A stretch of DNA of 57,837 nt from a virus (Duplodnaviria > Caudoviricetes): IMG/VR virus record IMGVR_UViG_3300042923_000257, positions 1 through 57,837 of that record. One strand, 5' to 3'. Made by a program: the position numbers and the translations under genes. Within the stretch, counting starts at the first letter, position 1, and every line of letters starts with the position of its first letter. The notes beneath the pieces were generated by a model that saw nothing but the letters and a program-made list of their open reading frames with translations, had not been told where the DNA came from and made no database searches. Below are positions 1-54,749 of this stretch, one piece after another.

Positions 1-22
1 GATCGAAGGAAGGCGCCCCCGG
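1..22. repeat. 22-bp direct repeat (copy 2 at 57751-57772); circular overlap of the assembled genome
   Basis: GATCGAAGGAAGGCGCCCCCGG is identical at 1-22 and 57751-57772. Confidence 0.9.
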
Positions 23-76
23 CGGGTCCTCGTCGCTCTTTCTAACGCATTACCCCATGTATGTGCGTGCGTGTGC

Positions 77-392
77 GAATGAATGAATAAACGCCGGCAG
101 GTGCCAGGCAATAACATCCGAGCATTCGGGCATAGCCCATTAGGAATGTGTGCATTCATTCATTAGAATGCGAATGCATGAGGGAATGAGGCTAGGTCGA
201 CTTGAGGTCGACCCCCTGTCGATGCCCTGTCGACTAGGTGTCCCTGTCGGGCCCGGTAGTCCGTGCCGGCCCCCTGTACGGCCGACTCCTGTGTACGTGG
301 CTCCCCTGTACCCCTTGACAGAGATACGGTGTGTGGGGTATACGCGTGCGCGCACGTTCCTATATACACAGCAGGGGCTAGGGCCCTGTACC
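77..392. repeat. Short-motif arrays (GAAT/ATTC tandem units; CCCTGT(C/A) iterations)
   Basis: gaatgaatgaat at ~77-88, cattcattcatt at ~153-165, and about six CCCTGTCG/CCCTGTAC copies between ~212 and 392; no credible ORF. Confidence 0.6.
315..344 (+). promoter_or_regulatory. Candidate housekeeping-sigma promoter
   Basis: TTGACA-18 nt-TATACG upstream of the early module; -10 imperfect. Confidence 0.4.
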
Positions 393-466
393 GGCCTAGG
401 GGCCGGCCCCCGTCGACGCCGGCACCACAGTGCCCCTGAACGAATGAAAGAAAGATGCGCTCCCAG

Positions 467-479
467 GTTGAATCGAGAC
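467..479 (+). promoter_or_regulatory. Repressor operator/stoperator site
   Basis: GTTGAATCGAGAC, genome-wide repeated motif. Confidence 0.8.
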
Positions 480-553
480 TGCCAACCGTGCTCTAATAGG
501 GGTGTGCCCGGAGGAACGGCACCCGACAGGGGGCCTAGTACGAAGGCAGCACT

Positions 554-580
554 CGTTCCACAGTCAACTGAACAGCGTGC
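554..580 (+). promoter_or_regulatory. rrn-leader/boxA-like element
   Basis: CGTTCCACAGTCAACTGAACAGCGTGC resembles the Streptomyces rrn leader CGTTCCTTGAGAACTCAACAGCGTGC (recalled, not searched). Confidence 0.5.
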
Positions 581-587
581 TAAGCAA

Positions 588-911
588 AGCAAGATCCTAT
601 AGGCGAGTAAGAGCCGGCTAGTAGGAAGAATGACGCGCCGTATACCGCGATAGTCCCTAGGGAGCTACGGGAGCTTTGATCTAGGGGTTTCAAAATGGGG
701 CAACCTGGCAGACACAGTCTGTCGCATGTCGAGAAGGTGTCGACATGGCGAACACCCGCCATCGCCTAACAGATCTTGCTCATACCCTAAGCGTCAGAAC
801 ATTCCCCGCGGCCCCTAAGGGGGCCGACATGAGAGGGTAGGGCCTACTAGCCGGCCCTAGTCCACAATGAAGGCTAGATGCACCACACAAGAGGGATGAC
901 GGCCCTAGGGT
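588..911 (+). ncRNA. Putative large structured leader RNA with two multi-stem domains
   Basis: Closing helices AGCAAGATC..TAGGCGA (588-606)/TCGCCTA..GATCTTGCT (762-780) and ACCCTAAG-CGTCA (784-796)/TGACG..CTAGGGT (897-911), each enclosing several hairpins. Confidence 0.5.
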
Positions 912-923
912 TGTAAACCTCAG

Positions 924-990
924 TAGGTATGCAGTAAGAGGGTAGCCGGTCCGCATCATGCCGGCCCGGGTGCCCACTTACCGTCGCCTA
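924..990 (+). repeat. Long hairpin element, copy 1
   Basis: TAGGTATGCAGTAAGAGGGTAGCCGG...CCGGGTGCCCACTTACCGTCGCCTA; homologous to 1131-1195. Confidence 0.7.
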
Positions 991-1004
991 CAACAGGAGG
1001 AATC

Positions 1005-1133
1005 ATGGAAGACAACACGGCTGAATGGGCACAGTCTCCCCTCACTGAATGGGAGCGTGACCTTCTGGCACTGGACATGTCGGACGTCCCTGTGAGGGAC
1101 ACTACGGCAGACGAGAACATTGCAGCACAGTAG
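1005..1133 (+). CDS. 42-aa acidic micro-protein (MEDNTAEWAQSPLTEWERDLL...)
   Basis: AGGAGG RBS at 995-1000, ATG..TAG; below the ORF-track cutoff. Confidence 0.7.
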   Translation: MEDNTAEWAQSPLTEWERDLLALDMSDVPVRDTTADENIAAQ

Positions 1134-1195
1134 GTAAGCGGTATCGGGTAGCCGGCCCACCCCGAGTGGTCCGGATGCCCTCTTACTGTCGCCTA
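1131..1195 (+). repeat. Long hairpin element, copy 2
   Basis: TAGGTAAGCGGTATCGGGTAGCCGG...CCGGATGCCCTCTTACTGTCGCCTA. Confidence 0.7.
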
Positions 1196-1196
1196 G

Positions 1197-1209
1197 GTTG
1201 AATCGAGAC
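1197..1209 (+). promoter_or_regulatory. Operator/stoperator site
   Basis: GTTGAATCGAGAC. Confidence 0.8.
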
Positions 1210-1214
1210 ACACA

Positions 1215-1493
1215 ATGCCCATTTGGATCACAGCCGTAGTCATGGCACTGGTCTACATCTCCGGAGTTCAGGCACTGAGCATGCCGGCCCGGAACATCAC
1301 GGAGCATCACTCTCAGGACAGCATCACGGATGCGGCTGAATGGGACGCATTCCACGCTGAGGCTTATGAGGAGTACGCCGCAGAGTTCACCGCACTCTAC
1401 AACGGATACGAGACCCGGTGGAGTAAGAACAACCGGCTCATGATCCGTAACGGGGACAGTGGTCCGTATAAGTTCGTCAAGCGTGCAGCCTGA
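1215..1493 (+). CDS. Hypothetical phage protein (start may be ATG 1281)
   Basis: ORF in the early operon; C-terminus ETRWSKNNRLMIR..YKFVK looks protein-like. Confidence 0.65.
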   Translation: MPIWITAVVMALVYISGVQALSMPARNITEHHSQDSITDAAEWDAFHAEAYEEYAAEFTALYNGYETRWSKNNRLMIRNGDSGPYKFVKRAA

Positions 1494-1506
1494 GGAGGAG
1501 AAAGCA

Positions 1507-1668
1507 ATGAGTGACGTCTACTGTTTTGAGGACGGACAACTCGTATACGGCAGGATCATTGCTACTGGTGGCCGACGAGGTGACCTTTACACCATTCAGT
1601 GGGATGACGGAATGCAGACGGATGAATGGAGCGACACTGAGGGCTCCTACTGGTGGTGGGCCGAGTGA
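1507..1668 (+). CDS. Hypothetical protein
   Basis: GAGGAG RBS, ATG 1507, overlaps next start (GTGA). Confidence 0.7.
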   Translation: MSDVYCFEDGQLVYGRIIATGGRRGDLYTIQWDDGMQTDEWSDTEGSYWWWAE

Positions 1669-1847
1669 ACGCGGAATTCATTGCATGGTTGGTCGGGACG
1701 GACGTCAGTGACGTAGTGGCCTACCGGGACGTAGCCGACTGGCCCACACATTGGGCCGCTAAGGCACAGCACCACATGCGGGCCCTTGGTATCGGGAGTG
1801 AGCACGAAGCACTTTCGGTGTTCCGCTCCCGTTACTACTACGGCTGA
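1665..1847 (+). CDS. Hypothetical protein
   Basis: Translationally coupled GTGA overlap. Confidence 0.6.
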   Translation: MNAEFIAWLVGTDVSDVVAYRDVADWPTHWAAKAQHHMRALGIGSEHEALSVFRSRYYYG

Positions 1848-1861
1848 CGCATACCCGCATA

Positions 1862-1874
1862 GTTGAATCGAGAC
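1862..1874 (+). promoter_or_regulatory. Operator/stoperator site followed by a GC hairpin
   Basis: GTTGAATCGAGAC then GGCCCCTGGA-T-TCCAGGGGCC. Confidence 0.8.
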
Positions 1875-1910
1875 TAGGCCCCTGGATTCCAGGGGCCGGC
1901 AGGAGCAAGC

Positions 1911-2231
1911 ATGAACGTGACACAGGTATTCGCAGAATTCTGGGCACTCTACTCCGGTAAGCGGGAAGTCCTGGGGCATGCACTCATTTCCCATGATCCG
2001 TATGACCAATTTGCCTGGTGCCAAGGGTGGCGTTTCGCTATTGCGGGTTACCTCACCTTCCAAAAGGGTGAGTCCGTTCCCGACTTCCGTCCGGCCCCTA
2101 GTGGTCCGGAAGACACGTATGAGTATGAGGAACTCCTGCACATCCGGCCGGATACTGACGCACTTTGGTACGCGTTCAACGTTCTGAGCCGGTACCGCGA
2201 ATGGCTCCGCATTGCAGGAAAGGACTACTGA
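1911..2231 (+). CDS. Hypothetical phage protein
   Basis: AGGAG RBS, 106-aa ORF. Confidence 0.75.
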   Translation: MNVTQVFAEFWALYSGKREVLGHALISHDPYDQFAWCQGWRFAIAGYLTFQKGESVPDFRPAPSGPEDTYEYEELLHIRPDTDALWYAFNVLSRYREWLRIAGKDY

Positions 2232-2393
2232 GTGAACGAACGCATGCTCGGAGTGTGTGGCATGGCCGGTACGGGTTGTTCACCAAAGTGCCGGCGTACC
2301 CACAAGCCTAAGCCTAAGAGGAGCAAGAGGGCCCAGCGCTCTTACGAAAAGGGCAAGTGGCGTAAGTCCATCAGTAAGTACCTGAGCCGTTAG
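2232..2393 (+). CDS. 53-aa very basic Cys/Lys/Arg-rich peptide
   Basis: GTG..TAG fills the gap exactly; ...CSPKCRRTHKPKPKRSKRAQRSYEKGKWRK. Confidence 0.55.
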   Translation: MNERMLGVCGMAGTGCSPKCRRTHKPKPKRSKRAQRSYEKGKWRKSISKYLSR

Positions 2394-2404
2394 GAGAGTG
2401 CATC

Positions 2405-2590
2405 ATGCCCGTTTCTCTGGTCAAGGATCTGCCTAAGTGGCAGTACTTCCACAACGACGGGGAGCCGGTACCGGAGCACATTCTGATGAGTCGCCGGTAT
2501 GACAACGGCGCCCGGATTTCACAGGAATGGGGGTACTACTTGCGCAACAACGACTTGTGTGAATTGCAGGAGTACTACCGACACGGCTGA
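2405..2590 (+). CDS. Hypothetical protein
   Basis: AGGAG RBS, 61 aa. Confidence 0.7.
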   Translation: MPVSLVKDLPKWQYFHNDGEPVPEHILMSRRYDNGARISQEWGYYLRNNDLCELQEYYRHG

Positions 2591-2681
2591 TTCGGTCGGG
2601 CGAATGGAGGTGGACAGACCCTTAGGGGTCTGTCTGCCGCATTGACCCTATCGGAACTAGCAGGAAGCAAGGGGTAAGGCA

Positions 2682-3092
2682 ATGAGCGAAACGCGTGAAC
2701 ACTGGACACTGTGGGTCTGCACGAATTGCATTATGCATCACGCAAACGGTGAGTGCGGAGACTGCCACAACCCGGACGGACATGAGGGGGGCGAACCCCT
2801 GAGCAAGGTGGATTACACCCGCTCCGCGGCCGGCATGTTTTCCGAAGAACATGACGACACTTGCATGCGTAAGTGCTCGTGCACTCAGGATGACGACTGT
2901 GAAGAGCACGGTGAAACGGACCCGGTAACGGGAGACTCCCGAGACTCACAGCACCATGACGCATCCGATCATGTCTGCCCGGATGACTACGAGTGCGACT
3001 GTGAGACGAGCACATTCAGCACGAGCACTTGCGACGGGTGTGGCAGTGAGTACCACGGTGAGCGGCACGCCATGACGGAATGGAGCAAGTGA
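2682..3092 (+). CDS. Cys/His/Asp-rich putative metal-binding protein
   Basis: CTNC, CGDC, CDGC and many His in 136 aa. Confidence 0.7.
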   Translation: MSETREHWTLWVCTNCIMHHANGECGDCHNPDGHEGGEPLSKVDYTRSAAGMFSEEHDDTCMRKCSCTQDDDCEEHGETDPVTGDSRDSQHHDASDHVCPDDYECDCETSTFSTSTCDGCGSEYHGERHAMTEWSK

Positions 3093-3094
3093 CC

Positions 3095-3301
3095 ATGGCT
3101 AGTGGATATGAGGGTGAGACCCTCTCCCTTCCGCACGTCAACTACCCGCATGAGCCGGGCCGGCTGTATGACTGCCCGGGTTGTGAATCCGAGTGCCATT
3201 GCTCGGAAGTCAAGCGACTGCAAGGGGAAACGCAGTGCATCTTCTGTGCATCCCTGGAGGCTCAATTCACCGATGCTGACTTTCTCGACACCGACCACTG
3301 A
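3095..3301 (+). CDS. Cys-rich small protein
   Basis: HVNYPHEPGRLYDCPGCESECHC..CIFC. Confidence 0.7.
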   Translation: MASGYEGETLSLPHVNYPHEPGRLYDCPGCESECHCSEVKRLQGETQCIFCASLEAQFTDADFLDTDH

Positions 3302-3323
3302 GCAACAGACAGGAGCATCACTC

Positions 3324-3587
3324 ATGCGTAAGTTCATCGCGTCTCTCGTCATCCTTCTGACCATGACTGCCGGTACCGCGGAAACGGCTACGGCCAAGCC
3401 CCTGAGCTACCGCCAGAAGGTGATTGCCGGTACGGCCGGCTACGGCCCCTGCAAGGCTATGCGAAAGACTGAGGCCGGCCGCATTGCCTATTGGGACATG
3501 GTGGCGGACAACACGGATGACGGTAAGCGTCGCTCCGTTAAGGCTCAGGTCTCGTACGTACGTCAGGGTTGCCGGAACGGAGTCTGA
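3324..3587 (+). CDS. Small secreted protein
   Basis: AGGAG RBS; signal peptide MRKFIASLVILLTMTAGTAETATA. Confidence 0.7.
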   Translation: MRKFIASLVILLTMTAGTAETATAKPLSYRQKVIAGTAGYGPCKAMRKTEAGRIAYWDMVADNTDDGKRRSVKAQVSYVRQGCRNGV

Positions 3588-3590
3588 ACA

Positions 3591-3785
3591 ATGCGCACTT
3601 TCGCCGCAGTAGTCGTGTCGGTCCTGCTGTCTGTCAGTGTCTCTGTGGGTATCACGCACAGCCTCATGCAGGAGCGGGCACAGCAGGAAGTCAACCGCAC
3701 CCGGGTCGACTCGTTCAATGACGGCTTTCTTGACGGATTGTGCCGTGACGGTATCGACGGCCGAGGCACTCTGTGCGTCAAGTAA
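3591..3785 (+). CDS. Small membrane-anchored protein
   Basis: N-terminal hydrophobic helix; DSFNDGFLDG. Confidence 0.65.
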   Translation: MRTFAAVVVSVLLSVSVSVGITHSLMQERAQQEVNRTRVDSFNDGFLDGLCRDGIDGRGTLCVK

Positions 3786-3798
3786 GTTCAATCGAGAC
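3786..3798 (+). promoter_or_regulatory. Operator variant
   Basis: GTTCAATCGAGAC (one mismatch), intergenic. Confidence 0.65.
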
Positions 3799-3811
3799 TA
3801 GGAGTAAGAGC

Positions 3812-4009
3812 ATGAGCCCCCGTATCGGAGTCCACTACTCGTCTTACGTTGCCGCAGAGGGAATGAAGTGTATTCCCTTCTGTGAGGAGACCCCCACACA
3901 TTGGGCATGCTCGGAGTTCCGCGGAGACAAGCATCACGCGTGCCAGGCACGGTGTGAGACGCACCGACAGACCGACGAGCCTCACACGACGTACAACACC
4001 ATTCAGTAA
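3812..4009 (+). CDS. Cys/His-rich small protein
   Basis: AGGAG RBS, ATG 3812. Confidence 0.65.
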   Translation: MSPRIGVHYSSYVAAEGMKCIPFCEETPTHWACSEFRGDKHHACQARCETHRQTDEPHTTYNTIQ

Positions 4010-4018
4010 CGCCGGCTA

Positions 4019-4031
4019 GTTGAATCGAGAC
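4019..4031 (+). promoter_or_regulatory. Operator/stoperator site followed by a GC hairpin
   Basis: GTTGAATCGAGAC then GGGGCCCGG-ACAA-CCGGGCCCC. Confidence 0.8.
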
Positions 4032-4080
4032 TACGGGGCCCGGACAACCGGGCCCCCTTCACTCAGCGGGAGGTAAGTCA

Positions 4081-4494
4081 ATGAGCGTGGAAGAACTTAA
4101 GGCATGGTCTGCGGAGCATGAGCGCACCGACGAAACCAGGTATGCCGTAGCTACCTACAGCTATGCGTGTACTGCCTATGTGCGGACTGCACTCCGTAGG
4201 GCCCTGGAATTCCAGCCGCGGGACAACGTGTGGTTCGGAACGGAATATGTGAACACTGCCCGCGGCATGGTCGACGGGCCCGGCATCCTGCCGGACGTTT
4301 CAGTCTGGCGCCTTACCAAGCTGGAACTCATGACCATTAGCCGTGCCCTTGAATGGCGCAGAGGTAAGCGCGCGGCCGGCAAGGTGGACGTCAACGTGTC
4401 TCCCTCCATTCTCCTGGAATGGGAGTCAATTGAGAATGAGGTAAGCCGAGTGCTGCGGGACGTCTGGCACTCCGAGGGAAAGTATTGGATGTGA
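4081..4494 (+). CDS. Hypothetical protein
   Basis: GGAGGT RBS, 137 aa. Confidence 0.75.
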   Translation: MSVEELKAWSAEHERTDETRYAVATYSYACTAYVRTALRRALEFQPRDNVWFGTEYVNTARGMVDGPGILPDVSVWRLTKLELMTISRALEWRRGKRAAGKVDVNVSPSILLEWESIENEVSRVLRDVWHSEGKYWM

Positions 4495-4498
4495 TCCT

Positions 4499-4738
4499 GT
4501 GAGCCTCACTAAGCGATTCCAGGAAGACGTAGACGACTTGACGCACCGTGCCGCTAAGGCGGCATGGCTCGAAACGTCAACGGAGCGCATGGCAGCAATC
4601 CGAATCGTATTCCAGGATGCTGGCACCGCGTCACTCATCTACAACGATCCCCCTACCATCACGGTTCTGTTCGTAAAGGCAATCTCGAAAGCCTTTATGG
4701 ACGCGCGTAGGGCAACCATCTATCGAGTAGCCGGTTAG
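4499..4738 (+). CDS. Hypothetical protein
   Basis: 79-aa ORF tiling the operon. Confidence 0.6.
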   Translation: MSLTKRFQEDVDDLTHRAAKAAWLETSTERMAAIRIVFQDAGTASLIYNDPPTITVLFVKAISKAFMDARRATIYRVAG

Positions 4739-29736: not shown

Positions 29737-29862
29737 GAGTCTCCTAGTCGGGTTCAGGGCACTGAGACCGGTGGCAACCGTGTCTCCAACAGAAGTTCGG
29801 ATCTCTCATCTCTTCTTCTGTAGCCACGCCAACCCCCCGTTGGATGAATGAAGTTGTGTCAG

Positions 29863-29942
29863 TGCGCCGCCTTGGAATCGAACCAAGCAAGCCTCAATTG
29901 GCCAGGGCTTTACAGGCCCCGTTGTGTCCCAGCACTCAACGC
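29863..29942 (-). tRNA. Degenerate tRNA-Tyr(GTA)-like gene
   Basis: Anticodon arm GGGGC-CTGTAAA-GCCCT, variable arm, T arm CTTGG-TTCGATT-CCAAG; short D arm and weak acceptor stem. Confidence 0.6.
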
Positions 29943-30100
29943 AAGACCTCGTCCACAAGGAACGAGGTGTGTTTCAAAAGCCCATCAGGGCCAACCGCCT
30001 CACGACGGGATGTCGGATGCCACGGGGGCTGCAATAGCTCTCTCCTGCATCCTCTGTGCTCTTCTCCCGAGGCAGCCTCAGGTGCCTGAAGCACAGCCGT

Positions 30101-32207: not shown

Positions 32208-33044
32208 ATGAGCCGAGACATCACCACACAGCCGCGGTCTGTCTCCCAGACTGAGCAGTACGAGAAGTGCAGTTGGCAGTTCTATCTCCAGCGAGTTGAG
32301 CGGGTCGTCCCTCGGCCGGCCGCCTGGTCCTTCCAGGGCACGGCCTTCCACTCGGCCGCGGAGAAGTTCGAGAAGGAGTTCAGGGAGCCCACGGCAGAGG
32401 AGATGGTCCAGCTCTTCTCCGACCAGTACAGCGCCATGGTGAACAAGGCGATGGACCAGGAGCCGGATCTGAACCGGTGGATGACTGCCAACAAGAAGCC
32501 TGCCGGCCAGGACATCGAAGAGCGGTACGCCCTGGGGCAGAGTCAGGTAGCTCGGTATGTCGAGTGGTCCAACGAGAACGAACCTGAGATCTGGGTGGAT
32601 GGCGAGGGTTGGAACGGGGCGGACATCTCGGAGGCTCCGACCAACCCCAAGATGGGCCTGGAGCTGTACTTCAAGGTCGAGTTGGGAGGCGTGGTCGTCC
32701 GTGGCTACATTGATCAGCTTCCGTACGACGGAGGCCCTGGAACCGTGAGGGTTCGGGACCTGAAGACCGGAAGCACCAAGTCCGAGTTCCAGCTTCAGAC
32801 GTACAAAGTCGCCGTGGAGAAGCAGTTCGGTCTCACGGTCAACCGAGGGGACTGGTACTTCGGCAAGACTGGGGGCCTGTCCAAGGCTGTCGACCTCTCC
32901 GAGGTGACGGAGGAACAGGTAGCAGCTCGGTATGTGGAGATGGACCAGGGCGTGAAGCGGGGAGACTTCCCGGCGAAGCCGGGCTTCCACTGCAATTTCT
33001 GTGACGTGAGCCACGCTTGCACTTTCAAGCGGACTCGTAGTTGA
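32208..33044 (+). CDS. Cas4/RecB-like PD-(D/E)XK exonuclease
   Basis: RSVSQ..QYEKC, GTAFH, GYID, DLKTG, QL.TY, C.FCDV...C. Confidence 0.88.
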   Translation: MSRDITTQPRSVSQTEQYEKCSWQFYLQRVERVVPRPAAWSFQGTAFHSAAEKFEKEFREPTAEEMVQLFSDQYSAMVNKAMDQEPDLNRWMTANKKPAGQDIEERYALGQSQVARYVEWSNENEPEIWVDGEGWNGADISEAPTNPKMGLELYFKVELGGVVVRGYIDQLPYDGGPGTVRVRDLKTGSTKSEFQLQTYKVAVEKQFGLTVNRGDWYFGKTGGLSKAVDLSEVTEEQVAARYVEMDQGVKRGDFPAKPGFHCNFCDVSHACTFKRTRS

Positions 33045-33069
33045 ATCGAGACAGGAAGTCTGTCATACT
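33040..33069 (+). promoter_or_regulatory. Operator overlapping promoter -35
   Basis: GTTGAATCGAGAC; TTGAAT-17-CATACT; second site GTTGAGTCGAGAC at 33122. Confidence 0.8.
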
Positions 33070-36417: not shown

Positions 36418-36717
36418 ATGAAGACGAACAAGCGCACGAACCCCACAGGCTTCGGAATCCAGAGAGACATCACGGATGACGGAGCGGTCCTCTACCTCAG
36501 GATCACGAACCCCCGCCGGCTGAACACCAAGTCCCTCGGAGAGGTTCTCGTCCGCTACCTTCAAGGTGGATTCGAGACACTGATTCTCGATCAGGGTCCC
36601 TTCAAGCGACAGAAGATGAAGCTCGTTGAGTTCCTTGGCCGGCTCCAGGCCAGTTTCAACGAAGGACAGCTTCTTTTTTTCGAGCGTAAGTTGAATCGAG
36701 ACCGTGTCTCGTTCTAA
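36418..36717 (+). CDS. Hypothetical protein (operator at 36690-36702 in its 3' end)
   Basis: GGAG RBS plus ATG; GTTGAATCGAGAC at 36690. Confidence 0.6.
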   Translation: MKTNKRTNPTGFGIQRDITDDGAVLYLRITNPRRLNTKSLGEVLVRYLQGGFETLILDQGPFKRQKMKLVEFLGRLQASFNEGQLLFFERKLNRDRVSF

Positions 36718-44794: not shown

Positions 44795-44824
44795 GTTGAA
44801 TCGAGACCACATGTTCGTCATACT
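44795..44824 (+). promoter_or_regulatory. Operator overlapping promoter -35
   Basis: GTTGAATCGAGAC; TTGAAT-17-CATACT; shares GTCATACTGGAAGTAGG with the 33040 promoter. Confidence 0.8.
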
Positions 44825-52568: not shown

Positions 52569-54065
52569 TCAGGCAGCCTCGGTGAAGACAGGCTCTACCC
52601 GGGCAGCATCGAAGTTGGCTCCCCGGCTCTTGGCCGGGTGGATCAGGACCGCGGTGAGCACCGACCTGACCACCTCGCGCTGACGCTCCAGAGACAGCCC
52701 CTGCCATCCCTTCCGGATGACGTCCTCTTGGACGGGAGCCTGAGTCTCTGCCAGATGTAGGGCCCTCTCAGCCTTCAGCCTGTCTCGGTCAGACTCCAGG
52801 TCTTCCAGGGTGGCTACGTAGATGCTGGCTCGGATCTCCCGCTTCTCCCACTTCTGCTGGAGATCCTTGATCTCCTGCTGAACCTCGTCAAGCTCTGCCT
52901 GTTTGGTCCACTCGGTGTCCTTCTTGACCTCCAGGCCGACCAGAGACCTTTCCACCGTGGCCCAGACGAGCTGACGGACCATCTTGTCTACTGGGGGACC
53001 AGTGATCTGCATACGCCCGCACTCGTCCGCCTGCCTCTTCTGGCAGGAGTAGGCGTAGGTGTCCGTCTTCTCGCCCTTCTGCCAGACCGGGGCCCCATGC
53101 ATCCGGGATCCACAACGGCCACACCGAGCGATGCCGGACAGGAGGTACTTCGTGGTGATGTCCGGCTTCGTCTTCTTCTGCCGACTGGCAATCTTGGCCA
53201 TGAGGGCTTCCCACTCGTCCACCGTGACGATGGGGGGCCAGTCACCCATGACGTAGTTGCCGTCCTTGTCCCTCATGGGCTCACCCTGGAACTTCAGGAT
53301 GCCGGCGTTACGGCAGCGCATGAGGACGCGACGGAAGTGCTCCCGGGAGAAGGGCTTACCCGTGCTGGGGTTGATGAGGTTCTCCTCAGCGAACCTCTCT
53401 AGGATTGTGGGGATGCGGTCACCTTGGATGAACCACTTGGTGCCACGGCGGATCATGTCCGCGGCCACGGGGTCCAGCTTCAGGCGGTCCTCAGGATCCC
53501 AGCCGAAGGCCGGCGTCCCTCCGTGGAACTCCCCCTTCTCCGCCATGCGCTTGGCCTCACGCCTGATCCGGCGTCTGGTGTCCTCAGAAGACTTGTTGGC
53601 GATGGAGACGAAGAGCCGAGCAGAGAAGCGGCCATCCGGGGTGTTCAGATCGAAGTTCTGGCCGGACAGGCCATCGAAGATCAGGTACCGGCCCTTCTCG
53701 TTGGCTCCCTCGTAGATGTCGATAGTTCGCTCAAGGTCCCGCGGTTGGCGGGTGTAGCGGTCGATGTCGTAGTAGAGGATGCCGTCCAGGGCCCCAGGCT
53801 TGGGGAGATCCTTCAGGAGCTGTTCGAAGCGCTTGCGCTTCACGCTCCGACTGAAGGCGGAGAGGTTGTTGTCCTCGTACCAGACGATCTCGCCGGGGGA
53901 GTAGCCGTGTCTCTCAGCAAGGGCTACGACGTCATCCTTCTGCTTCAGGACGCCCTTCCGTTCCCGCTCCTGGCCTTCCTCCTTGGTGATGTCTCCGTTC
54001 CTGACAGCACGTCGGATCTCGGCTAGGTCGGCATCGGAGATGCGCAGGTACCCTGCAATGGGCAC
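52569..54065 (-). CDS. int: Large serine integrase
   Basis: YLRIS catalytic motif, D...SA...R..FE.LL, DR..R, recombinase domain, LLSG...CG.CG Zn ribbon, coiled coil. Confidence 0.95.
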   Translation of the reverse strand: MPIAGYLRISDADLAEIRRAVRNGDITKEEGQERERKGVLKQKDDVVALAERHGYSPGEIVWYEDNNLSAFSRSVKRKRFEQLLKDLPKPGALDGILYYDIDRYTRQPRDLERTIDIYEGANEKGRYLIFDGLSGQNFDLNTPDGRFSARLFVSIANKSSEDTRRRIRREAKRMAEKGEFHGGTPAFGWDPEDRLKLDPVAADMIRRGTKWFIQGDRIPTILERFAEENLINPSTGKPFSREHFRRVLMRCRNAGILKFQGEPMRDKDGNYVMGDWPPIVTVDEWEALMAKIASRQKKTKPDITTKYLLSGIARCGRCGSRMHGAPVWQKGEKTDTYAYSCQKRQADECGRMQITGPPVDKMVRQLVWATVERSLVGLEVKKDTEWTKQAELDEVQQEIKDLQQKWEKREIRASIYVATLEDLESDRDRLKAERALHLAETQAPVQEDVIRKGWQGLSLERQREVVRSVLTAVLIHPAKSRGANFDAARVEPVFTEAA

Positions 54066-54658: not shown

Positions 54659-54740
54659 GGCGGTGTGCCCGAGCGGCCAAAGGGAGCAGACTGTAAATCT
54701 GCCGGCTCAGCCTTCCCAGGTTCGAATCCTGGCGCCGCCA
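54659..54740 (+). tRNA. tRNA-Tyr(GTA)
   Basis: Canonical cloverleaf GGCGGTG...GCAGA-CTGTAAA-TCTGC...CCAGG-TTCGAAT-CCTGG-CGCCGCCA; -10 TAATGT at 54601. Confidence 0.95.
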
Positions 54741-54749
54741 CACTAGTAG

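Follow-up and report, generated by a model that had tools for sequence, protein, structure and literature searches.

The early genes of phage T7 are set apart by RNase III sites (R0.3-R1.3 type, for example R1.1). These intercistronic hairpins span about two helical turns broken by an internal loop; each sits after a stop codon and ahead of the following ribosome-binding site, and they recur from one gene boundary to the next at the start of the operon. Substrates of E. coli RNase III typically comprise two helical turns, their internal loops confine cleavage to one strand, and protective 3' hairpins remain (PMC1540722, in the sections drawn on here). In T4-type phages, PeSL (promoter-early stem-loop) cassettes have been described in which conserved stem-loop repeats flank small non-essential open reading frames (ORFs) of hyperplastic regions, and modules are gained, lost and rearranged among related phages (Arbiol et al. 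2010, PMC2839356, as far as the sections used here extend). Here we analysed the complete virus record IMGVR_UViG_3300042923_000257, whose full 57,837 bases are called the window below, and describe a family of hairpins that recurs in related phages. Two of its members, c1 and c2, flank a 42-codon gene in the window, and we favour, on balance, the view that these are gene-boundary RNA hairpins whose DNA doubles as recombination joints.

On RNA, the element is most like the T7 RNase III sites, and on DNA it is most like the PeSL cassettes, which are reportedly treated further by Comeau et al. 2014. With the T7 sites it shares the intercistronic position from stop codon to ribosome-binding site, the recurrence at successive boundaries at an operon start, and a helix of 17-30 base pairs (bp; median 21 over 20 copies) that is interrupted by an internal loop. 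It differs from them in having no sequence similarity and in its Streptomyces host. Whereas the T7 sites are spread over the early operon, the phage hairpins are confined to a hypervariable array of two to four boundaries, and, unlike the T7 sites, their lower stem is far more conserved in sequence than RNase III needs. The likeness to PeSLs lies in stem-loop repeats around small ORFs whose modules come, go and change order. However, the strong sigma-70-like early promoter of the PeSLs has no counterpart here (window 1-4500 contains 0 promoter-like sites, where shuffles predict 1.8), none of the copies is followed by a T-run (the 3' flanks of c1 and c2 read ...CGCCTACAAC and ...CGCCTAGGTT), the upstream ORF ends on a stop codon within the hairpin, and the hosts are actinobacterial and the phage probably temperate.

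Two further systems invite comparison. Cluster K mycobacteriophages carry 13-bp asymmetric SAS repeats, half of which are preceded by imperfect inverted repeats, the ESAS (Pope et al. 2011, PMC3203893, in the parts consulted). In both cases an actinobacteriophage has a 13-nucleotide (nt) asymmetric motif in one orientation near gene starts, a subset of which follows inverted repeats with a variable spacer. However, the sequences found here bear no relation to GGGATAGGAGCCC, the 13-mer adjoins just 4 of 21 hairpins, and the ESAS are 17-bp inverted repeats found genome-wide, whereas the hairpins here have ~25-nt arms, an internal loop and a covarying upper stem and lie in one array. Integron attC sites are likewise imperfect hairpins, conserved at their ends and variable in the middle, that close promoterless ORF cassettes on the 3' side, and their cassettes, too, occur in variable order, with hybrid sites arising from recombination within the hairpin (for the present family, we infer these). 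They differ in that the window has no integron-type tyrosine recombinase, in that a strand asymmetry of the phage hairpins indicates sense-strand RNA, and in sequence, where no similarity was found. Having no promoter, U-tract, sequence similarity or integron integrase, the element is not a member of any of the known families compared.

The hairpin family and its conservation

The element is a sense-strand RNA hairpin of about 55-80 nt, present in two to four clustered copies in each of eight related phage records. With a covariance model (CM) built from five copies, namely c1, c2 and three hairpins of Streptomyces phage Ibantik, we detected 20 plus-strand copies at E <= 1e-5 in seven records, plus three in locus L189. 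Ibantik is the nearest named relative of the window phage (~78% DNA identity across a few hundred bases near one genome end), and its three hairpins of the same type lie at the equivalent place. In five related whole records of ~57 kb there are 3, 4, 3, 3 and 3 copies, always confined to a single cluster of less than 1.5 kb, and a CM search of the whole window returned c1 and c2 only. The features of the window on which the argument turns are these:

923-990, plus strand: core of hairpin c1, with a variant lower stem (CM match 919-994, 68.5 bits; -38.3 kcal/mol)
995-1000, plus strand: Shine-Dalgarno (SD) sequence AGGAGG, 4 nt before the ATG of the 42-codon gene
1005-1133, plus strand: 42-codon gene for an acidic peptide; its stop codon TAG (1131-1133) is the first three bases of c2
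1131-1195, plus strand: core of hairpin c2, consensus-type (CM match 1126-1199, 82.3 bits, the best; -32.6 kcal/mol)
1197-1209, plus strand: 13-nt motif GTTGAATCGAGAC, abutting c2, one of 26 copies in the genome
1215-1493, plus strand: 92-codon gene with a hydrophobic N-terminus, the first conserved gene past the array in related phages and our downstream anchor
887-905, plus strand: degenerate partial repeat of the c1 5' arm (AAGAGGGATGACGGCCC against AAGAGGGTAGCCGGTCC; 889-905 against 936-952, 76%)

The two CM matches bear out the starting observation of a sequence-only reading of this DNA, which had seen two homologous hairpins around the ORF at 1005-1133, and this pattern goes beyond chance. 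The family consensus consists of TAGGTAAGCGGTATCGGG, a variable upper stem and loop, and CCCTCTTACTGTCGCCTA, and c2 has exactly these arms. Those of c1 are GCAGTAAGAGGG on the 5' side and CCCACTTACCG on the 3' side, and its upper stem, GGGTAGCCGG/CCGGGTGCCC, is common to c2. Direct repeats relate the two hairpins at 921-936/1128-1143 (88%), 940-952/1146-1158 (92%) and 963-990/1168-1195 (86%), with identical runs of only ~10 nt at the longest, and the outer arms form an inverted pair (932-952 and 1168-1188; 21 nt, 86% complementary, 215 nt apart). Folded alone as RNA, c1 (26 bp) has a z-score of -5.4, which none of 200 shuffles equalled, and c2 (24 bp) one of -2.7, equalled by 3 of 200; on the minus strand the z-scores were weaker. 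The variant arms of c1 are not an assembly error, because c1 is identical in a second, near-identical contig. That contig (X2) joins 886 to 921 without 887-920, and the partial repeat at 887-905 falls within a stretch of 34-43 nt that is missing both there and from Ibantik, in which ...aaggctag runs directly into the first hairpin.

The members are built alike: from the bottom up, 5 bp of base, a small bulge, a helix of 6 bp, a 2x3 internal loop of pyrimidines (UC / UCU) and a variable, covarying upper stem of ~10 bp. The internal loop is conserved in most copies, c1 having a 1x1 A.A mismatch in its stead, and together with the lower stem it is conserved in sequence while the upper stem varies freely. 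In an alignment fitted to the model structure, 97.7% of 398 cells of the local hairpin were paired, against 82.8 +/- 1.1% after shuffling (0 of 500 shuffles reached the observed value) and 36-53% in controls with slid partners. Compensatory changes on both sides were seen at 12 of 20 pairs, among them all nine pairs of the upper stem. G-U cells outnumbered A.C cells by 62 to 5, and the paired fraction would fall from 97.7% to 83.4% if the minus strand were the RNA; this asymmetry indicates an RNA transcribed with the genes. Judged by covariation, the local hairpin is what evolution conserves.

The hairpins also have a characteristic place among the genes, occupying the gap between the stop codon of a small ORF and the next SD. 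In 13 of 21 copies an upstream ORF of at least 25 codons stops within the first 14 nt, by the TAG or the overlapping TAA of TAGGTAAG, so that the stop often forms part of the 5' base, and in 12 of 21 an SD with its start codon begins no more than 5 nt from the 3' end of the CM match. No ORF of at least 25 codons ends at the 5' base of c1. The hairpins do not qualify as canonical intrinsic terminators: a terminator scan of window 1-4500 gave two sites, neither of them at a hairpin.

The 42-codon ORF that c1 and c2 enclose is, on its codon pattern, a real gene under purifying selection, because it has an AGGAGG SD 4 nt upstream and a third-position bias relative to its homologue in relative G003 (L010 982-1104). 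Over 41 codons, 14 are identical, 17 differ synonymously and 10 non-synonymously, and the differences fall 10/6/24 on the three codon positions. A second homologue surfaced only through the hairpin pattern: on the reverse strand of L189, an 87-aa ORF (291-551) ends in 36 residues that are 72% identical to the 42-aa peptide, so the micro-ORF of the window may be a free-standing or truncated domain. Searching viral contigs with the 42-aa protein returned G003 again (L125) and L126, the latter a 29-residue stretch within a larger ORF that has no hairpin and was set aside; metagenome contigs and genome contigs held no homologue. The small proteins encoded at 1005-3089 matched no Pfam or PHROG family. 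In Ibantik (L001), a 43-codon ORF with an AAGGAG SD lies between hairpins B and C at 1225-1356; its TAG stop is in the base of hairpin C, and the record gives it no coding-sequence annotation.

Pattern searches outside the closest relatives were mostly unproductive. The consensus 3'-arm 16-mer marked six viral loci, of which L004 and L005 have no convincing hairpin, and in genome contigs it occurred at 17 loci, none actinobacterial by title and none CM-positive. A gapped arm pattern occurred in at least 117 stretches; when the CM was run on 79 further loci (L011-L089) and 35 more (L090-L124), copies were found in L030 only, among the matches listed. A search specific to the c1 arm gave 17 viral and 24 metagenome loci, including L164, whose single weak CM match (25.2 bits) falls within an ORF for a membrane protein and was put down to chance. 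Patterns for the type-b and type-c arms added L188, with no CM match, and L189, with its three. An apparent sharing of the c1 AGTAAG 5' arm with the G003 hairpin upstream of the homologue was dropped, as L189 indicates that the matching letters are largely the GGTAAG base of the family. In a collection of named phages, the hairpins or the 92-aa gene were found only in Ibantik (two records), while 21-nt matches in seven Arthrobacter phage records (E ~7) lie inside nuclease genes and were attributed to chance. Rfam gave no match at the hairpins: the whole window at gathering threshold yielded one tRNA only, and region 700-1400 at E <= 10 a single chance-level snoRNA match on the opposite strand (1207-1260). 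Among the papers listed for Ibantik and for stem-loops, conserved repeats or stoperators of Streptomyces phages, we found no description of this hairpin family, which to that extent is previously uncatalogued.

Module exchange between hairpins

ORF modules between the hairpins are swapped and reordered among the phages. From the 92-aa gene onward, the segments that follow the last hairpin are similar in all 21 genome pairs, while the 15 segments between hairpins fall into ~10 unrelated types, and the types held in common sit in differing slots. Thus segment S1 of G001 corresponds to S3 of G002, S2 of G001 to S1 of both G002 and Ibantik, and S2 of G002 to S2 of G004; S1 of the window corresponds to S1 of G003. 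The second Ibantik hairpin, hB (L001 1146-1212), combines a type-b 5' arm (TAGATAAGAGG) with a type-a 3' arm (ACTGTCGCCTA) and is mismatched at exactly the two pairs that define the types, and on this pattern it is probably a recombinant hairpin.

Joints were read from relatives' contigs aligned to window 600-2600. Two contigs from two studies pass directly from 877 to 1129 and from 879 to 1130, so that their first hairpin is consensus-like and c1 with the ORF is missing there, and another contig joins 1195 to 1269. In one contig, of depth 2.3, the sequence follows the window to 1158, continues with 11 other letters and resumes at 966; it thus has a c2-like 5' arm, a loop of its own and a c1-like 3' arm, followed by the ORF. 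In alignment, joints at hairpin edges such as these agree with module exchange at the hairpins.

Cross-pairing of c1 and c2 and the competing explanations

The sequence-only reading had drawn attention to a swapped complementarity between the two hairpins, and base by base it was right. The 5' arm of c1 (GCAGTAAGAGGGTA) pairs with the 3' arm of c2 (TGCCCTCTTACTGT) at 14 of 14 positions, two of them G-U, as against 12 of 14 with its own 3' arm (TGCCCACTTACCGT), where an A.C and an A.A mismatch remain. The 5' arm of c2, GCGGTA, pairs at 6 of 6 positions with TACCGT of c1 (one G-U) and likewise at 6 of 6 with its own TACTGT (two G-U). As half-hairpin duplexes, the two cis combinations have -29.0 and -25.3 kcal/mol (sum -54.3), and the trans combinations -36.5 for the c1 5' half with the c2 3' half and -30.1 for the c2 5' half with the c1 3' half (sum -66.6), a gain of 12.3 kcal/mol in trans. 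For the RNA 915-1205 (291 nt), the minimum-free-energy (MFE) structure is a nested fold of -124.6 kcal/mol; with the pair span limited to 90 nt the best fold has -111.7 kcal/mol, so that nesting is ~13 kcal/mol more stable. Two mutually exclusive folds therefore do exist in silico for the window genome, as that reading had supposed. Substituting a second c2 for c1 in silico cut the advantage of long-range pairing from -11.1 to -1.7 kcal/mol, so the effect comes from the variant arms of c1.

The relatives do not fold in this way. Over 16 adjacent hairpin pairs from eight records, the MFE structure of the window contains 52 cross pairs and the 15 others contain 0-14. In the two other contexts that have a homologue of the 42-codon ORF, there are 14 (G003) and 0 (L189), with mean equilibrium probabilities of 0.62-0.71 for the local hairpins as against 0.0 in the window; the remaining 13 pairs have 0-12. 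Adjacent copies in relatives always bear different upper stems, each paired in cis, whereas c1 and c2 carry one upper-stem allele (GGGTAGCCGG / CCGGRTGCCC), the same as Ibantik hB, and for this reason the cross-pairing is missing in relatives. A conserved switch or excision device built on cross-pairing, as first proposed, is thus not supported, given the homologues (14 and 0 cross pairs against 52) and the covariation, which backs the local fold; the sequence-only reading had itself named missing conservation of the cross-pairing among the signs that would speak against it. By comparison with relatives, the cross-pairing is peculiar to the window genome and not a conserved RNA switch, and the claim of a conserved switch should be abandoned.

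Nor is the c1 5' arm matched to c2 in particular. When each of 20 copies was matched against all 20 3' halves, its own ranked first in 15 cases; the exceptions include c1 (rank 7), c2 (rank 4) and Ibantik hB (rank 7). For the lower 5' arm of c1, 12 of 19 foreign 3' arms are better partners than its own, and five consensus-type 3' arms, that of c2 included, tie at -25.2 kcal/mol with it; the tie means that this arm complements the family consensus, not c2 specifically. The cis mismatches of c1 lie at the imperfections of the family helix, the A.A replacing the internal loop and the A.C standing at a position that is G-U in 13 of 20 copies and A-U in 5 of 20. The swapped complementarity would then be a by-product of three circumstances: c1 and c2 are homologous, they have the same upper-stem allele in the window lineage alone, and they fill the two weak spots of the family, internal loop and G-U position, with different bases, so that the cis stem of c1 retains the A.A and A.C imperfections, both of which turn Watson-Crick in trans. 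A second, weaker outer-arm complementarity is seen in Ibantik, where the 5' arm of hB fits the 3' arm of the next hairpin, hC, with 12 cross pairs. On a transcript of this region, the polymerase would finish c1 more than 130 nt ahead of c2, and the barrier for refolding from local to nested is at most 18.5 kcal/mol by a heuristic direct-path estimate that gives an upper bound. The local fold may thus be trapped kinetically, and in these models the kinetics favour it.

Under the reading that we favour, with hairpins at gene boundaries on RNA and recombination joints on DNA, each hairpin would act locally as a gene-boundary element. Its likeliest role would be that of an RNase III-type processing site, at which the internal loop restricts cutting so that a protective hairpin stays on the 3' side, as between the early genes of T7. 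The grounds for proposing such processing are the helix of about two turns, the conserved internal loop and the placement from stop to SD; by analogy, RNase III-type processing or 3'-end protection is a serious candidate, which we nevertheless put forward tentatively. The T7 analogy of the sequence-only reading thus survives for the anatomy and placement of the individual hairpins (two turns, internal loop), and it does not extend to a cross-paired excision device. On DNA, the conserved arms would provide short homologies for the exchange of ORF modules. Several points weigh against this reading. RNase III needs little sequence specificity, and the conservation of the lower stem and pyrimidine loop exceeds what it would require, so that a specific protein could be the partner instead. 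No phage-encoded RNase III was found in the window record, and the host enzyme, which in Streptomyces is AbsB, would therefore have to act. Joints at hairpin edges are partly to be expected, because the hairpins are conserved islands amid diverged sequence, and the covariation alignment, being fitted to the model structure, is biased toward it. Lastly, the nested fold dominates the predicted equilibrium in the window, with 56 cross pairs at a mean probability of 0.93 and local pairs near 0, which leaves a slim chance that the long-range duplex has a function specific to this lineage.

That the nested duplex is a functional alternative fold, gating translation of the 42-codon gene or excising it as a mini-mRNA, nonetheless seems to us very improbable. 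Its predicted dominance, the trans advantage, the loss of most of that gain when c1 gives way to a second c2 and the unchanged c1 of the near-identical contig all speak for it. They are opposed by the low cross-pair counts of the 15 other adjacent pairs and of the two homologue contexts, by the differing and cis-covarying upper stems of neighbours in relatives and by the equal fit of the c1 5' arm to five consensus arms; moreover, c1 (-38 kcal/mol) would be finished long before c2 and might stay trapped, and ribosomes on the ORF would open the inner helix. A modest chance remains for hairpins that are cassette recombination sites on DNA, like attC or PeSL, with the swapped arms as the hybrid-site scar of an inserted cassette. 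The tiny ORFs would then travel with the hairpins and might, with the same limited likelihood, be gained, lost and reordered by recombination inside them, possibly via circular intermediates; as part of this scenario and no more probable than the whole, the swapped arms and Ibantik hB would be scars comparable to attL and attR. The unit seen here, an ORF plus a 3' hairpin that contains the stop codon and is conserved at its ends but variable in between, does recall ORF-attC cassettes, and the reordered modules, the two-type arms of Ibantik hB and the depth-2.3 contig, with its c2-like 5' arm joined to a c1-like 3' arm ahead of the ORF, would all follow from such a system. The hypothetical parental hairpins (-36.5 and -30.1 kcal/mol) match or beat the family's cis range of -18.1 to -32.9 kcal/mol, and PeSL-mediated shuffling and mini-circles are documented in T4-type phages (PMC2839356, same sections). 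However, the window encodes no tyrosine recombinase, only a large serine integrase that presumably serves prophage integration; the 62 G-U against 5 A.C cells and the stop-SD placement argue for selection on RNA; identical runs between c1 and c2 reach only ~10 nt; both parental hairpins would need the same upper stem; and two point changes in the c1 3' arm account for the swap equally well.

Two explanations keep the hairpins on RNA and give them another task. Reportedly, U-less terminators exist in the early region of phiC31, and the hairpins could be U-less terminators or attenuators in series at the operon start that are read through by antitermination. We regard this as unlikely, even though strong GC-rich hairpins directly follow stop codons, two to four of them precede, one after another, a long block of co-directional genes in a phage that is probably temperate, and PeSL stem-loops are effective terminators (PMC2839356, in the passages used). 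The missing T-runs and the negative scan at the hairpins stand in the way, stems of 21-30 bp with a conserved internal loop exceed what a terminator needs, and mycobacterial RNA polymerase did not terminate in vitro at hairpins lacking a U-tract, according to the portion of PMC3993855 cited here. The hairpins might instead be sites for a specific phage or host protein, a translational regulator or antiterminator, in the manner of the ESAS of Cluster K mycobacteriophages. This would suit a lower stem and internal loop that are conserved in sequence beneath a free upper stem, hairpins just upstream of SDs, the 4 of 21 copies that abut the 13-mer and the basic, cysteine-rich protein conserved downstream (2232-2393). 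We nevertheless hold it to be distinctly unlikely, since the hairpins occur in the array only whereas the 13-mer is genome-wide, SAS and ESAS show no sequence similarity to them, and the small proteins have no family matches.

What is new is a covariation-supported RNA motif that delimits interchangeable micro-genes in a group of Streptomyces phages, themselves probably temperate. Should the hairpins be processing sites, they would show the conversion of a polycistronic leader into insulated mini-mRNAs. If they are recombination joints as well, they would give actinophages an experimentally accessible equivalent of T4 PeSLs or integron cassettes, through which the acquisition and shuffling of orphan genes by phages could be studied; were the cassette explanation true, one element would serve both as a DNA recombination site and as an RNA processing or insulating hairpin. 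Ibantik is an isolated phage growing on S. lividans, so the processing and recombination ideas are testable.

The 13-nt motif and the wider record

The motif that abuts c2 is a 13-nt asymmetric sequence (GTTGAWWCGAGAC) with 26 matches at up to two mismatches in the window, against 1.57 expected. Its sites include 467-479, 1197-1209, 1862-1874, 4019-4031, 33040-33052, 36690-36702 and 44795-44807; they are mostly intergenic, often after a stop codon, and their strand mostly matches the local gene direction, being plus to ~4 kb, mostly minus from 9 to 30.5 kb and mostly plus beyond, with several variants clustered at the strand switch at 30.5-31.7 kb. Of 21 hairpins, 4 have a copy no more than 25 nt downstream, c2 being among them and c1 not. 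The motif looks like a stoperator or a start-associated repeat, and a repressor-stoperator system has been described for Streptomyces phage R4 (PMC10276819, in the part drawn on).

The copy at 1197 ends 5 nt before the ATG of the 92-codon gene at 1215 (window 1197-1217), which has no SD there, whereas in the orthologues of L009 and G003 the same ACACAA(A)TG follows an AGGAG/AGGAA SD. In this comparison the site looks like a deletion or recombination joint, at which the window would have lost modules that G003 keeps between its first hairpin and the 92-codon gene. The 92-aa protein (1215-1493) has 54% identity to that of Ibantik.

The record codes for a terminase, a family A DNA polymerase, a ribonucleotide reductase and a DUF3987 primase-like protein. 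Further features are:

52569-54065, minus strand: large serine recombinase (Resolvase domain, 48 bits, match 53529-53954), the sole recombinase detected
54659-54741, plus strand: tRNA-Tyr gene adjoining the large serine recombinase
29862-29947, minus strand: second tRNA-Tyr (GTA), on the opposite strand

PF00589 had no match across the whole 57.8-kb record, hence our statement that it has no tyrosine recombinase. The phage is probably temperate, because it encodes a large serine recombinase and one relative, G001, is listed as a provirus.

A few genes downstream of the array, the gene at 2232-2393 and its homologues in Ibantik, G001, G002 and L009 encode a small (53-64 aa), very basic and cysteine-rich protein that reads ..CPDGPGGRDCYCCGQPPGK..RKYLSR in relatives. 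Neither Pfam nor PHROGs gave it a family; it is a candidate for nucleic-acid binding, and any tie to the hairpins is speculation. Positions 1-900 of the window are a long stretch without a convincing gene at the start of the record. They contain inverted GAATGAATGAAT and CATTCATTCATT runs at ~78-90 and ~155-170, many CCCTGTCG- or CCCTGTAC-like repeats at ~214-400 and one 13-mer at 467, and may represent a genome end, an origin or a regulatory region. Finally, a hairpin outside the family, GGCCCCTGGATTCCAGGGGCC, stands at 1875-1897, after the 13-mer at 1862 and ahead of the SD that serves the gene at 1911.

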